Shown: positions 7,392 through 25,086, counted from the stretch's first letter. The stretch: DNA of 46,202 nucleotides from Armatimonadia bacterium (GCA_039683575.1 JBDKRC010000181.1:1-46202), one strand, 5' to 3'. Program-made: numbers and translations. Notes: generated by a model from the sequence alone, not told the origin.

Positions 7392-7473
7392 GCGGGCAGG
7401 GATGCCCGCGTACCTACGGCAACGGCGCGGCGGGGTACGAGCCCCCTGCGACGATGACGTCGCTACGCCCTAC
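7392..7473 (-). repeat. Composite REP (family B plus family A); the family A unit is interrupted by a 20-nt mini-hairpin at 7447-7466
   Basis: GCGGGCAGGGATGCCCGCGTACCTAC...CGGCGGGGTACGAGCCCCC[TGCGACGATGACGTCGCTAC]GCCCTAC. Confidence 0.88.
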
Positions 7474-7480
7474 AGCCTGG

Positions 7481-8194
7481 CTACTCGGCTAGGACCTGTA
7501 GGCAGAGGTCGAGATGGTCGGTCAGGATGTAGTCTACGTTGGCTCTGATCAGCTTGCGCATCATGTCGGCTTCGGAGGTGCCGAACCAGTTTACCTTGAC
7601 GTTGTGCTGGTGGAGCTTTCTGGTGGCCTCGGCGAGGTTATCGGACCAGCCGCAGATCTGGATGTATTCGGCGCCCATGGCTATCGTGAGGTCGGGATAG
7701 TCGCTGTCGGCGCTGCGTTGGCCTTCGAGATTGCAGATGCGGATGGCGGGGTCGGTGGCGCGGGCGATATCGGTGTGGGCTTTGGGGCAGGCGAGGAAGC
7801 ATTGGTCCATCAGGTTGAAGGCTTTGATGCGCTCGATGACGCGCGGGACGTACTGAGGGGCGAGGTAGAGCTGGACGTTGACCTCCACGCCCGCGGGCAC
7901 GAGAGTGAGGATTTCGTCGAAGGTGGGGAGCTTTGTGCCTGCAAAGCGGGCATCCTTCCAGCTTCCGGCATCGAGGGCGCGGATTTGCGCGAAGGTGAGG
8001 TCGGTGGTCTTGCCGGAGCCGTTGGTGGTGCGATCGACCGTCTCGTCGTGCAGGACGATGATCTCCTCGTCAGAGGTGACGCGGAGGTCGAATTCGATCT
8101 GCGGCGCGCCCTTTTCGAGGGCGAGTTCGAAGGCCGGGAGGGTGTTTTCGGGGGCGCAGTGGTTGTCACCGCGATGGGCGCAGGCGTAAGTCAT
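7481..8194 (-). CDS. Glycerophosphodiester phosphodiesterase family protein
   Basis: AHRG...APENTLPAF, IEFDLR, LHDETVDRTTNGSG, DYILTD. Confidence 0.95.
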   Translation of the reverse strand: MTYACAHRGDNHCAPENTLPAFELALEKGAPQIEFDLRVTSDEEIIVLHDETVDRTTNGSGKTTDLTFAQIRALDAGSWKDARFAGTKLPTFDEILTLVPAGVEVNVQLYLAPQYVPRVIERIKAFNLMDQCFLACPKAHTDIARATDPAIRICNLEGQRSADSDYPDLTIAMGAEYIQICGWSDNLAEATRKLHQHNVKVNWFGTSEADMMRKLIRANVDYILTDHLDLCLQVLAE

Positions 8195-8200
8195 GGGAGG

Positions 8201-9286
8201 TCACCTGGATGTGAGTTGGCGGGCTTTGGTGCGGAGTTCGTCGAGGGGGCGCTGATCACCTGCGGGGGTCGTGTAGGTCCAGTGGGTCCAGCCATTGCAG
8301 GCGGGGGCTTTGCCGACGAGAGCGCCGACTTTGTGGATCGAGCCGGTGTGGCCATTGGAGGAGATGGTGCCGTCGACGTTGACAGTGGCGGTGATATCGA
8401 GGCTGGCGTGGCGGAGGGTCTCGCCGGGGCTCAGGAACCCCAGGGTGAGGAGGGTTGCGAAGGCAAGGCGAGGCGGGGCAGAGGGGTCCTGGGTGTGCTG
8501 CAGGAGCCAGTCTTCGGCAAGTGGCGTGACAGAGGCCAGGCGGCGGGTGGCGACTTCTACGTAGCGCTCTTCGCGCTCGATGCCCAGGTAGCGGCGGCCC
8601 AGGCGTTTGGCTACCGCGCCGGTGGTGCCGGTGCCGAAGAAAGGGTCGAGGACGAGGTCGCCGACGCGGGTGCTGGAGACGATGACGCGCTCTAGCAGGG
8701 CCTCGGGTTTCTGGGTCGTGTGGGCCTTTTCGCCGTTGAGGGTGAGACGCTCGTCGCCGGTGCAGAGGGGCAGGTACCAGTCGCTGCGGAGTTGCTTGCC
8801 CTCGTTGTAGCGCTTAATGGTGTGGTGGTTGAAGGTGTAGCGCTTTTGGGACTTGGTTTTCTTGGCCCAGAGGAGGGTTTCGTGGGCGTTGGTGAGCCGC
8901 ACGCCGCGGAAGTTGGGCATGGGGTTGGTTTTGATCCACAGGACGTCGTTGAGCAGCCAGAAGCCGAGGTCCATCATGATCTTGCCGACGCGGTAGATGT
9001 TGTGGTAGGAGCCGATGACCCAGATGGTGCCGGTGTCGGAGAGTACGTGGCGGGCGGCGGTGAGCCACTCTTCTGTGAAGCGGTCGTAGGCATCGAAGTC
9101 GCCGAACTGGTCCCAGTGGTCGTCCACGGCGTCCACTTTGGTCATGTTGGGGCGGTAGAGGTCGTTTTCGAGCTGGAGGTTGTAGGGCGGGTCGGCGAAG
9201 ATGAGGTCGGCGGAGGCGGCGGGGAGGGAGTGCATCGTGGGGATGCAGTCGGCGTGGAGGATGGAGGCGGAGGGGAGGGTGGGCAT
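8201..9286 (-). CDS. Orphan beta-class DNA adenine methyltransferase, CcrM/M.HinfI-like, with C-terminal RAMA-like domain
   Basis: [65 protein letters not shown], and C-terminal GSIHKVGA...CNGWTHW. Confidence 0.92.
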
Positions 9287-9297
9287 TTTGTGAGGTT

Positions 9298-9327
9298 GTT
9301 ATAGCATACGGAGGGGGAGGTGGTCAA
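9298..9327 (-). promoter_or_regulatory. Sigma70-like promoter of the methyltransferase: TTGACC-18 nt-TATAAC (extended TG)
   Basis: -10 at 9298-9303 and -35 at 9322-9327; the -35 overlaps the end of the family E repeat. Confidence 0.6.
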
Positions 9328-9412
9328 AATGGGGACGGAGCCTGCGCGCGAGGGTTGGAGAGAGGGTTCTGGCGAGAGGAAGGTGGCGCGCGAAGGCTCC
9401 GTCCCCATTTTG
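9325..9412. repeat. REPIN/MITE-like element, family E (26-bp inverted repeat, 1 mismatch)
   Basis: CAAAATGGGGACGGAGCCTGCGCGCG ... CGCGCGAAGGCTCCGTCCCCATTTTG. Confidence 0.9.
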
Positions 9413-23152: not shown

Positions 23153-23166
23153 GGAGTGTGACGGTC

Positions 23167-23188
23167 GCGGGCGAGCCGCCCGCGCCAC
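23167..23188 (-). repeat. Family B REP
   Basis: GCGGGCGAGCCGCCCGCGCCAC, identical to 26390-26411. Confidence 0.85.
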
Positions 23189-23239
23189 GTGTGTTGGGGC
23201 CTATGCGACTGGTGTTGGGGCTCATGTTGAAACACGGCT

Positions 23240-24241
23240 ATGGGAGAGACCATGTTTGAATGGAATGGCCGGAAGGTGCTGGTTACTGGCGCCTATGGCT
23301 TTCTGGCGGCGCATTTGATTGAGGGACTGCTGCGGCAGGGCGCGCAGGTTGTGGGGATTGTGCGCGATTGTCCGGCGGAGAGCTACCTGCAGTACCAGTA
23401 CCTCGACACGCAGGTGACGTTGCTGCGCGGCGATGTGGTGGACCTGGAGTTTTGCCGCCGCGCGCTGAATGAGGAAGAGGTCGAGGTCGTGTTTCATCTG
23501 GCGGCGCAGGCGATTGTGGGGACAGCGAACCGCTCGCCGCTGAGCACGTTTGAGTCCAATATCAGGGCAACGTACATGCTGCTCGAGGCGTGCCGGGAGG
23601 TGCGCGTGGACGGGGGGCCGCTGCAGAGCGTGGTAGTGGCCAGCAGCGATAAGGCCTACGGCGACCAGGAAGTGCTGCCATACCGTGAAGAGGCGCCGAT
23701 GCAGGGGCTGCATCCCTATGATGTCTCAAAGAGTTGCACCGACCTGATCACGCGGACCTACGCAAACACGTACAAGCTGCCGGCGGCCGTGACACGGTGC
23801 GCGAACCTGTACGGGCCGGGGGATTTGAACTTCTCGCGGATCGTGCCGGCGACGGTACGGGATGTGCTTCAGGGCACGCGGCCGGTGATTCGCAGCGACG
23901 GGTCTCCGCAGCGCGATTACCTGTACGTGGGGGATGCAGTAGAAGGGTATCTGGCGCTGGCGGAGGCGGTTATTGAGGGGAAGGCGGTAGGGAAGGCGTA
24001 TAATCTGGGGACCGGGGTGCCGGTGACGGTCTTGCAACTGGTGGAAGACATCATACGGGCGGCGGGGTCGGAGCTGACGGCAGAGGTGCAGAACACGGCC
24101 GGGGGCGAGATCAAGCACCAGTATCTGGACCCGACGCGGGCGCGCGAGGAGTTGGGCTGGGTGGCGCGCACGCCGCGTGACGAGGGCCTGAAGCAGTGCC
24201 TGCAGTGGTATTCTGAGTATCTGAGCGAGCAGAATGAGTAG
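23240..24241 (+). CDS. NAD-dependent CDP-sugar dehydratase/epimerase (RfbG/YfnG-like extended SDR)
   Basis: VLVTGAYGFL, FHLAAQAIV, ASSDKAYG, catalytic YDVSK, NLYGPGDLNFSRIVP. Confidence 0.9.
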   Translation: MGETMFEWNGRKVLVTGAYGFLAAHLIEGLLRQGAQVVGIVRDCPAESYLQYQYLDTQVTLLRGDVVDLEFCRRALNEEEVEVVFHLAAQAIVGTANRSPLSTFESNIRATYMLLEACREVRVDGGPLQSVVVASSDKAYGDQEVLPYREEAPMQGLHPYDVSKSCTDLITRTYANTYKLPAAVTRCANLYGPGDLNFSRIVPATVRDVLQGTRPVIRSDGSPQRDYLYVGDAVEGYLALAEAVIEGKAVGKAYNLGTGVPVTVLQLVEDIIRAAGSELTAEVQNTAGGEIKHQYLDPTRAREELGWVARTPRDEGLKQCLQWYSEYLSEQNE

Positions 24242-24971
24242 TCCGCAACTTTCAATTGTAATGCCAGTCTATAATGAGCGGCCGACGGTGCTGGAAATCC
24301 TCCAGCGCGTGCGTGACCTGCCCATCGACAAAGAAGTCATCATTGTAGATAACTGCTCTACCGATGGAACCAGGGAGATCCTGCAGGGGCTCTCATACCC
24401 CGATGTGCGAGTGGTTTTCCAGCCCTCGAACATGATGAAGGGCAACTCCGTGAAGCGGGGTATCGCGCTGGCCGAGGGCGAATATGTGGTGGTACAAGAC
24501 GGCGATCTGGAGTATGATCCCAACGACCTCGTGAAGATGCTGGCGCACATGACCGAGGAGGGGACGCTGGCGGTCTTCGGATCGAGGCTTCTGGGGGCCC
24601 AAGAGCGAGGAGAACCGATCAAACGCACGGTTTTCCGCGTTGGCGGGGACTTCGTGAACTGGTTTTTCAAGGTGCTCTTCAAGAGCGACCTGACTGATAT
24701 CGCGTCCTGCTATAAGATGGCACCGCGGGCGGTGCTGCAGAGCCTGCAGCTCTCGTGCGACAGCTTCGATCTGGACTTTGAGACGGCGGCGAAGCTGCAG
24801 ATGGAGGCGCGACGGCGCGGGCTGAAGATTCTCGAAGTGCCGATCAGCTATGCGCCACGGAGTGTGGCCGAAGGCAAGAAGATTAGCTGGCGGGATGGGC
24901 TTCACGCGGTCGCGACGCTGTGGCGGACGCGGTATGGGAAGGGGAAGGCTTGCCGGGGCGACATGCTGTAG
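24234..24971 (+). CDS. GT2 glycosyltransferase, DPM1/polyprenol-phosphate-sugar synthase-like
   Basis: SIVMPVYNE, VDNCSTDGT, QDGDLEYDP, GSR, LTDIASCYK, EVPISYAPRS..EGKKI.W.DG. Confidence 0.9.
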   Translation: MSSPQLSIVMPVYNERPTVLEILQRVRDLPIDKEVIIVDNCSTDGTREILQGLSYPDVRVVFQPSNMMKGNSVKRGIALAEGEYVVVQDGDLEYDPNDLVKMLAHMTEEGTLAVFGSRLLGAQERGEPIKRTVFRVGGDFVNWFFKVLFKSDLTDIASCYKMAPRAVLQSLQLSCDSFDLDFETAAKLQMEARRRGLKILEVPISYAPRSVAEGKKISWRDGLHAVATLWRTRYGKGKACRGDML

Positions 24972-24984
24972 GGGGTTTGGGACT

Positions 24985-25086
24985 GTGGGGCGGGGGCTCG
25001 TACCCCGCCGCAACAGCGAGACCTGATCGTAGATAACGACCGGCGGGGTACGAGCCCCCTGCGACGCAGACGTCGCTACGCCCTAC
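24985..25086. repeat. Family A REPIN; the right REP is interrupted by the 20-nt mini-hairpin at 25060-25079, followed by partial CGCCCTACAG tails
   Basis: GTGGGGCGGGGGCTCGTACCCCGCCG ... CGGCGGGGTACGAGCCCCC[TGCGACGCAGACGTCGCTAC]GCCCTAC. Confidence 0.9.

Follow-up and report, generated by a model that had tools for sequence, protein, structure and literature searches.

The hairpin repeats that go with RAYTs (REP-associated tyrosine transposases; REP, repetitive extragenic palindrome) are the described systems closest to the element discussed in this work. In the passages of that literature cited here, RAYTs cut and join REP DNA in vitro, with strand transfer reported (Ton-Hoang 2012, PMC3333891). 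Their cleavage, guided by the GTAG sequence, takes place at a CT or CA dinucleotide on the 5′ and on the 3′ side of a REP (Corneloup 2021, PMC8266576); for the E. coli RAYT the cut was mapped at C|T (PMC3333891). REPINs (REP doublets forming hairpins) are non-autonomous, RAYT-associated hairpin repeats that replicate within their genome (PMC3116915, PMC3337134). The inverted doublet is regarded as their replicative unit and singlets as immobile remnants (Bertels & Rainey 2011, PMC3116915). Our subject is a hairpin of 20 nucleotides (nt), below called the block, which is nested in the stems of two larger REP families, REP A and REP B, of an Armatimonadia bacterium. The window, i.e. the whole stretch of DNA that was analysed, is 46,202 nt long (JBDKRC010000181.1:1-46202, assembly GCA_039683575.1) and hosts four copies. 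It is contig C181 of a genome (G000) of 6.23 Mb in 352 contigs, with 63.5% G+C and 96% completeness.

Miniature derivatives of the IS200/IS605 insertion sequences (ISs) are named PATE. In the passages cited, IS200/IS605 elements recognise hairpins, lack terminal inverted repeats and are precisely excised and inserted as single strands (PMC3333891, PMC8266576), and they make no target repeats (PMC3333891). Each of these elements has two subterminal hairpins that differ from one another, and is inserted 3′ of a specific target of 4-5 nt, whereas the block has one hairpin and a flank in which only GC is constant. REPs are themselves IS targets: ISPpu9 is one IS that targets them (PMC8450116), and other cases are cited for Pseudomonas, Neisseria and Sinorhizobium (in PMC3733652, PMC3184786). 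As with the block, REP hairpins are there the preferred landing sites for mobile DNA. However, those guests are of kilobase size and encode a transposase, while the guest here is 20 nt and non-coding.

A palindrome within a palindrome has been noted before. In Thermomicrobium roseum, GTAG-23 REPs lie inside small palindromes of the form CCGSSCC(n3,4)GGSSCGG, hundreds of which are unoccupied (Di Nocera 2013, PMC3733652). The same brief remark, which its authors say they did not pursue in detail, also places REP dimers inside longer palindromes in two other species. The T. roseum hosts, as that passage describes them, are plain palindromes with the insert apparently between the arms, whereas here the hosts are GTAG REPs and the insert lies within the stem at one fixed nucleotide position. 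Unlike in that remark, we also have orthologous empty and filled pairs, and a different insert at the same point in sister species. A search of full-text literature, supplements excluded, found no printed REP-in-palindrome or REP-in-REP nesting beyond PMC3733652.

The block resembles the GTAG REPs that are found with a RAYT (TnpA-REP) gene in REPtrons, as it is a short, GC-rich, high-copy hairpin with G-N-A-G 5′ of the stem foot. As in REPtron genomes, there are several RAYT genes here, each with its own flanking REPs. The block ends in CA, and a group-3 RAYT is described as cutting at CA beside its REP (PMC8266576). Unlike the GTAG REPs, it lies inside other REPs, the second position of its GTAG is free and no RAYT gene is flanked by it; unlike in ordinary REPs, its exact ends and its empty target are visible. 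There is a likeness to REPINs in that REP A often occurs in inverted pairs, although the block itself is a lone 20-nt hairpin. We argue below that the block is probably a single-hairpin insertion unit of REP stems that is moved by an enzyme of the Y1 (single catalytic tyrosine) or RAYT type.

Hairpins nested in REPs

The earlier note on the window described four blocks of exactly 20 nt, all in the same orientation, and their sequences read just as it gave them. They lie at 7447-7466 (TGCGACGATGACGTCGCTAC, nested in REP A; sequence read and pattern match), 9614-9633 (TGCGACGCGGACGTCGCCCC, with tail CCC, nested in REP B; pattern match and stem listing), 16066-16085 (TGCGGTGCAGACACCGCTTC, with the stem variant GCGGTG/CACCGC and tail TTC) and 25060-25079 (TGCGACGCAGACGTCGCTAC, the commonest sequence type across the genome). 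Each consists of T, a perfect 6-bp stem that starts with GCG, an NNGA loop, the second stem arm and NNC, as listed stems confirm for three of them and a fold for 7448-7463. This pattern reads on the + strand in all four. The pattern TGCGNNNNNGANNNCGCNNCGC has 4 matches in the window where 0.06 are expected, and none of 100 dinucleotide shuffles reached 4.

We assign the four blocks to the minus strand, on which the note had likened two of them to a minimal GTAG-tailed REP. The minus-strand sequence is G-N-A-G-CGACG-TCNN-CGTCG-CA, in which a head of the GTAG type is followed by a hairpin and by CA at the end. For example, the copy at 7447-7466 is GTAG-CGACG-TCAT-CGTCG-CA.

The two hosts have different stems. 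That of REP A is GGCGGGG/CCCCGCC, a perfect palindrome, and the block sits at CCCC^GCC in its 3′ arm, which leaves a basal stem of 3 bp. That of REP B is GCGGGCA/TGCCCGC, with the block at TGCCC^GC. Read on the GTAG strand the filled hosts are CTGTAGGGC^GGGGG... (REP A) and CCGTAGGTGCGC^GGGCA... (REP B). The insertion point is 2-3 bp above the stem base throughout, at GC^GGG on the GTAG strand (CCC^GC on the other). In the window, the filled REP A at 7429-7475 (minus strand) has 47 nt, i.e. 27 + 20, and its block, at CCCCC^GCC, is co-oriented with the host GTAG head. The filled REP B at 9598-9642 (minus strand) has the block at ATGCCC^GCGCACC, from sequence and fold. A third host, the filled REP A at 16042-16092, has its GTAG head on the + strand, so that its block, at the usual stem point, is inverted relative to the host ('anti'). 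Its partner at 16114-16141 (minus strand) is an empty REP A of the TACGGAG-loop subfamily. The fourth block is part of a REPIN-like inverted pair of REP A units at 24984-25088, where only the right unit (25042-25088) is filled, the left one (24984-25010) being an empty REP A; the arms of the pair, 24992-25010 and 25041-25059, have 19 nt and are 100% complementary.

Removing the block was said to restore an intact host, and it does, with no duplicated base left behind: intact REP A is present at 2309, 24985 and 36667, and intact REP B at 7392. The empty REP A at 36667-36693 (minus strand; GGCGGGGTACGAGCCCCCGCCCTACAG on the + strand) serves as our reference copy, and that at 2309-2335, with its GTAG head on the + strand, has the reverse complement of GGCGGGGTACGAGCCCCCGCCCTACAG, as does the copy at 24985. 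The reference for empty REP B is 7392-7425 (minus strand; GCGGGCAGGGATGCCCGCGTACCTACGGCAACGG), with the stem 7392-7398/7403-7409; REP B reads GCGGGCAGGGATGCCCGCG(T/C)ACCTACGG. We likewise see no target-site duplication, since five C's followed by GCC are read both with and without the block. Of the three insertion contexts that the note distinguished, the A and B hosts stand. Its proximal and distal arms of REP A are one point, CCCC^GCC: the REP A stem is perfectly palindromic, therefore the two arms are the same point read on two strands, in two orientations relative to the GTAG tail.

Some further features of these REPs are recorded here. A solo REP A 3′ tail, CCCCCGCCCTACAG, directly follows a filled REP at window 25089-25110, and four tandem CCCGCCCTACAG repeats trail a REP A elsewhere in the genome (G000:C63:34402-34460). 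REP A, REP B and the families GGGCCGGCT.AAGCTCGGCCC (7333-7358), CGCGCTCAGGGGAGCGC and CGCGGTCTGGTGACCGC have a common outer frame, GGTCG(G/T)(T/A)GAT(A/G)ACGGC-hairpin-(C)CTAC, examples of which are found at 7330-7372, 16093-16113 and 25020-25041. Different hairpins appear to have been swapped in one REP scaffold.

Distribution within the genome

How general is this arrangement? Free-standing copies and heterogeneous junctions are what the earlier note would have counted against an element that targets REPs, and we find neither to be the rule. A strict perfect-stem pattern has 60 matches in the genome, and an A- or B-type half-REP lies directly upstream of all 60. A Hamming scan with five stem variants, in which 15-16 positions were scored, gave 253 matches with at most 2 mismatches. 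Its zero-mismatch copies number 74, every one of them inside a REP of type A or B. When near-exact copies are included there are about 104 copies with 52 distinct sequences, all in units of REP A or REP B. Outside the context patterns we found 23 matches with at most 1 mismatch: 12 lie in degenerate REPs by pattern, a further 4 do so by eye, and 7, of GC-rich variants, look like chance. The junctions are uniform inside each context genome-wide.

A scan of host anchors, which makes no assumption about the insert, gave bimodal lengths with a step of exactly 20 nt. Among 288 pairs of REP A anchors, 225 span 27/28 nt from anchor to anchor and 50 span 47/48 nt; among 110 for REP B, 68 span 23/24 nt and 17 span 43/44 nt. 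The pentamer CCCGC occurs at 38,395 sites in the genome, therefore sequence alone does not define the site.

Most of the stem-type copies (~93%) are co-oriented with the host GTAG head. There are 42-54 co-oriented copies in REP A, with the stem GACG and a tail that is mostly TAC (27/42), and 26-30 in REP B, with the same stem, rare GAAG and GGCG stems, and a tail that is mostly TTC (19/26). The inverted copies in REP A (4-6) always have the stem GGTG, and GCGGTG/CACCGC, the stem variant of the copy at 16066-16085, is confined to this context genome-wide. A fourth context, the border of loop and stem in REP A, has 14-15 copies of a 21-nt variant, T GCGATG CAGA CATCGC CAAG, all outside the window.

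The CCC^GC site of the earlier note describes the window copies well. Across the genome it is the position that is fixed, while the bases vary: the REP A subfamily with the variant stem GGCCGGG...CCCCGGCC has the junction CCG^GC (3 copies), and two B copies have GCCG^. On the GNAG strand the 5′ flank of the block is GGGC, GCGC or CGGC, with GC alone constant; in the 21-nt loop type this flank is GGGG. Contig C48 has a near-exact copy, CGCGACGCAGACGTCGCTAC, some 9.2 kb from an end of the contig (minus-strand offset 9228), which comes shortly after the complete tail of a REP A (…GCCCTACAG). It is outside the host stem, GCCCGGCAG after it, and may be a rearranged or tandem junction.

Filled and empty sites

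Are the filled REPs copies of one event? The note had held that they are not, and their spread over at least 8 host subfamilies (at least 4 of REP A and at least 4 of REP B) bears this out. In REP A the subfamily with the TACGAG loop has 99 empty and 24 filled members, that with the TACGGAG loop 60 and 6, that with the TACAAG loop 27 and 3, and that with the GGCC stem 15 and 2, plus one filled with a TACGTG loop. In REP B each of the four main subfamilies has filled members. The differences that are diagnostic of host subfamilies lie 6-12 nt from the insert, and one of these is a compensated two-base change in the stem.

These same data are where an alternative has to be weighed: that the hairpin entered REP A and REP B a few times at most, by whatever mechanism, and that the filled forms are composite REP subfamilies which have since spread through amplification of the filled host, with the machinery of the host REP, and through short-patch conversion or template switching among nearly identical REPs, so that the 20-mer was never an independent unit. 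The correlations within the filled set speak for it, with one sequence variant for each kind of site, tails that go with the host, and 14 loop-type copies that are almost identical in host and insert. The composite is also old, being present as filled REP B in relatives of 69-77% identity. Sequence for such exchange is at hand too: 15-25 nt of REP identity lie on either side of the site, and the A and B flanks share the microhomology CCC / GC. However, with diagnostic differences as close as 6-12 nt in at least 8 filled subfamilies, tracts of less than about 30 nt would be needed every time. Nor does it sit well with the inverted REP A pairs, in which the partner is empty for 21 of 22 filled units. 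Finally, 20-nt hairpins here and 22-nt hairpins in two sister genomes (G002/G003, see below) occur at one point with T...TAC ends, which argues for a reaction that is specific for site and ends. We regard conversion as the less likely explanation, though a serious one, and hold that insertion of the block as a unit probably accounts better for the distribution.

A more direct view comes from orthologous sites. The earlier note had asked for empty orthologous sites, and these exist. Using the filled pattern as a query against public metagenome contigs, we obtained 46 loci, 15 of which have the block in REP context, some of these being syntenic with G000. Three orthologous REP B sites could be compared, and all three are filled in the relative and empty in this genome by exactly 20 nt: L063 against contig C44 (identity over aligned columns 0.94), L095 against C51 (0.90) and L096 against C51 (0.92). 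At L096, near-identity extends more than 100 nt into either flank. L095 and L096 are two stretches of one contig. Paralogous sites give a similar picture: among long repeats of the genome (118-321 nt aligned, 70-95% identity) some are filled and others have an exact gap of 20 nt. For example, the copy at C31:7209 is filled, while those at C143:18784-18987 and C180:26768-26953 are empty.

Three other syntenic loci, L054, L088 and L091, are filled in the relative and were set aside as not being clean pairs, since at these places our genome differs in REP content or has an additional 1-kb segment. Whole REP units differ as well in two of the comparisons that were kept (L063 with G000:C44:52811-53951, and L095 with G000:C51:9559-11256). 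In these a 29-nt REP B unit is found in the metagenome relative only, and a 56-nt unit of the GGGGCCGAGCTTCAGCCGGCCC family in this genome only. In three genomes of the same genus, genes are 71-86% identical and synteny is broken at the REP clusters that were tried (window 5500-11500 and G000:C196:70001-88894). Of 24 public runs, 20 contain some part of the window, the best 0.31 of its words. Logan contigs from 4 of the 24, compared with window 6500-26400, are short and break at REPs, and there is no clean 20-nt joint among the joints listed.

Structural constraint

As single-stranded DNA the block alone folds at -7.8 kcal/mol (z about -4.4 to -4.9), and none of 200 shuffles folds as well. Filled REPs are predicted to form three-way junctions at -12.1 to -14.4 kcal/mol with the basal stem of the host kept; for the filled REP A at 7429-7475 the predicted value is -12.1 to -12.6 kcal/mol. 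Empty REPs fold at -8.4 (the REP A reference copy) and -9.8 kcal/mol.

At the stem ends, the leading T, the GA of the loop and the final C the entropy over the ~104 copies is close to 0, and it is highest at loop position 2 (1.26 bits) and at the middle base of the tail (1.69 bits). Two stem pairs covary among the 52 distinct sequences, one as A-T 44 / G-C 6 and the other as C-G 36 / T-A 11 / A-T 2. In the GNAG head the second position is T in 52, A in 31, G in 12 and C in 9 of 104 copies, whereas G, A and G are near-invariant. Low entropy together with compensatory stem changes indicates that the copies have been filtered for an intact hairpin and fixed ends. Such filtering is expected of protein-dependent propagation and equally of a selected structure.

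Could the block then be a selected structural module, either a protein-binding site or a three-way junction acting at the level of RNA, whose distribution reflects selection and not mobility? The compensatory changes, the near-invariant T, GA and C, and the ordered junctions predicted for filled REPs would all suit this idea. So would the orientation of the REPs, which follows the sign of the local GC skew (±10 kb) in 132 of 200 empty REP A and 47 of 55 empty REP B (Fisher p 9e-6 and 7e-8), the G-rich strand usually being the one that reads GGCGGGGTAC... However, concordance is 34/45 for filled REP A and 14/16 for filled REP B. Empty and filled hosts are thus equally biased, and the orientation bias belongs to the hosts and not to the block. 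Rfam 15 at gathering score has 0 matches in the whole window on both strands. A module would also leave unexplained why an identical 20-mer is found in two unrelated hairpins, and the clean presence or absence at orthologous sites. We give this explanation very little credence, and return to the block as an inserted unit.

Related genomes

The host is older than the guest, as REP A is abundant in relatives that lack the block. With at most 3 mismatches there are 178 copies of REP A in this genome, 129 in G002, 136 in G003 and 110 in G018. Of 41 related genomes searched with the filled pattern, this one alone has matches (43, against 0 for a reversed control). The REP B frame was not found in 5 related genomes scanned. 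Among 185,579 species representatives, a set that may leave out the window's own genome, the filled pattern gave 30 single matches in 30 other species, none in REP context, and we read these as chance and not as real copies. Filled REP B is also present in metagenome relatives of only 69-77% identity to this genome.

These counts bear on the reverse order of events, in which REPs had the block from the start and lost it precisely, by replication slippage that the hairpin promotes, so that the empty form is the derived one. Small perfect palindromes are prone to deletion, and the orthologous pairs do not separate gain from loss. That said, G002, G003 and G018 have abundant empty REP A (129, 136 and 110) and 0 matches to the filled pattern. 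The direct repeat at the boundaries is at most 1 nt, with none in the CCG^GC subfamily, which makes poor material for slippage, and the block is present in two unrelated hosts and in both orientations. Deletion as the general explanation seems very improbable to us; insertion into existing REPs is what we continue with.

The sister genomes G002 and G003 have a different hairpin at CCCCC^GCC of REP A. It is 22 nt long, T-GAGAYCG-CRAG-CGRTCTC-TAC, with compensatory stem variants and the same T...TAC termini as the 20-nt block. This hairpin accounts for 10 of 14 matches in G002 and 2 of 9 in G003, and the contexts of all 27 core copies were read. In G002 its core also occurs in another frame, CCGCCGCACACGT-core-GGCGGC (8 of 9 matches). 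A pair of these units (19338-19374 and 20079-20115) lies on the two sides of a RAYT-like gene, G002:C166:19501-19890; its score of 66 bits is below the cut-off of 80. Judged from sequence, this is how a RAYT and its cognate hairpin would be expected to be laid out. In a wider reading, which we offer tentatively, one GNAG-hairpin-CA unit of 20-22 nt may be all that RAYT-type (HUH/Y1) cut-and-paste needs as a substrate. Such units would land in the stems of other REP hairpins in single-stranded DNA, and each lineage of the genus would have a mini-REP of its own (20 nt here, 22 nt in G002/G003) for one landing site in the older REP A that they share.

Two side observations concern these sister genomes. 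In the G002 frame (C166:19338-20115 and the other loci L102-L122) the 18-nt core has the loop CAAG or CTTG relative to the same flanks, and the presence of both orientations suggests loop flipping or insertion either way round. In G003, REP A has an 11-nt block, GGCTGCGCT(A/C/T)C, at CCCCC^GCC in 7 copies, e.g. C31:19680-19713 and C39:13086-13119. Its last 8 nt correspond to the first 4 bases of the 20-mer joined to its last 4. A remnant left by deletion of the hairpin would be one explanation, a third kind of insert another.

Candidate enzymes

Eight Y1 genes are found in the genome, three IS200-like (on contigs C168, C51 and C331) and five RAYT-type. Four of the latter score above the NCBIfam cut-off (C102 with 119 bits, C296 with 93, C31 with 86 and C338 with 83), and the one on C237 scores below it (62 bits). 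Each of the eight is flanked by its own distinct palindrome, e.g. GTAGGCATGCTCCGCATGCC REPINs at C296 and GGGCCGGCTGAAGCTCGGCCC units at C31.

When the surroundings (about 1.5 kb) of seven Y1 genes or their loci were scanned for the block, REP A and REP B, the sole match was a filled REP B that lies about 1.1 kb upstream of C237, and none of the three was seen in the flanks of the C296 gene, of which 500-620 nt were read on either side. A scan of the RAYT loci of G000, G002, G003, G004, G008 and G021 likewise found no REP A or REP B. The assembly has 352 contigs and is 96% complete, so a REPtron may be missing from it. The phyletic pattern of the C102 RAYT over 21 genomes was set aside, as many paralogues of 26-53% identity leave no usable orthology.

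The IS200-like gene of C51 (7203-7612) lies among tandem units of about 200 nt, with short repeats of the GACGGCAACGGC type just upstream. Its region (G000:C51:7065-7517) is 96% identical to L096:2615-3024, compared with 89% for the flanking 2.8 kb.

Discussion

The earlier note proposed a tiny non-autonomous element that targets REPs and is moved by a HUH/Y1 enzyme (HUH, the histidine-hydrophobic-histidine motif). The first part is what we find, a discrete insertion unit confined to REPs. The second is weaker: no Y1 gene is flanked by the block or its hosts, and a HUH/Y1 catalyst is plausible. The enzyme, its single-stranded substrate and the direction of each event, gain or precise excision, are what we infer.

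The series of events that we envisage is as follows. A minimal REP, made of GNAG, a 6-bp stem, a 4-nt TCNN loop and CA, would be inserted as a unit into the stem of a larger REP A or REP B without target duplication. The composite would fold as a three-way junction that keeps the basal stem of the host, and would then be copied together with the host. The most likely catalyst is one of the HUH/Y1 enzymes of this genome, a RAYT or an IS200-like protein, which would cut and rejoin single-stranded hairpin DNA at the host stem and to either side of the small hairpin, in which case insertion and excision would both be precise. Y1 chemistry fits in that the block makes no target duplication, starts with GNAG and has an invariant CA end.

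Several observations weigh against this proposal. The sequence variant differs with the kind of site (GACG in co-oriented A and in B, GGTG in inverted A, GATG in the loop) and the tails follow the host, which implies that much of the copy number comes from copying of the composite or from variant-specific targeting, and not from free transposition out of one pool. Filled REP B in relatives of 69-77% identity gives the composite a certain age. All three orthologous pairs concern REP B and stem from two contigs, the bait for them was the filled form, and the comparisons gave no site that is filled here and empty in a relative. None of the eight Y1 genes is immediately flanked by REP A, REP B or the block, and the RAYT-like gene of G002 has a best relative here of only 29% identity. 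The junctions, GC|GNAG and CA|GGG, differ from the C|T cut described for the E. coli enzyme (PMC3333891). A lone hairpin is also unexpected under the models as cited here, both that of IS200/IS605, with two different ends, and that of REPINs, with a doublet (PMC3116915).

To which class of element does the block belong? In size (REPs have 20-40 nt), hairpin and copy number it is a REP, with GNAG in place of GTAG, and in this assembly it has no cognate flanking RAYT. It has no inverted partner block at a fixed distance as a REPIN would. Only one hairpin fits in 20 nt, where a miniature of IS200/IS605 would have two distinct ones with guide tetranucleotides. Miniature inverted-repeat transposable elements (MITEs) have terminal inverted repeats, a target-site duplication and a length of 50-400 bp; the block makes no duplication, is 20 nt long, and its ends, T... 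and ...NNC, are not inverted repeats beyond the stem.

The passages of the RAYT literature used for this comparison (PMC3333891, PMC8266576) contain no complete REP transposition event with defined ends and target. The nested blocks offer a natural record of that kind: the length of the insert is known and so are its ends (GNAG...CA), the target is located to the base in a hairpin stem, and there are empty and filled alleles. In the sister lineage this target has another insert, the hairpin of which also lies on both sides of a RAYT-like gene. We know of no experiment so far that provides such a before-and-after record for the transposition of a single REP.

If the 20-mer does move alone, it would be, to our knowledge, the smallest mobile DNA unit described. 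A single REP could then be a replicative unit, which would revise the view that only doublets, the REPINs, replicate. The nested copies would show single-REP transposition before and after the event, with the target and both points of cleavage. REPs landing in REPs would, furthermore, explain how mosaic REP clusters like the BIMEs (bacterial interspersed mosaic elements) grow.

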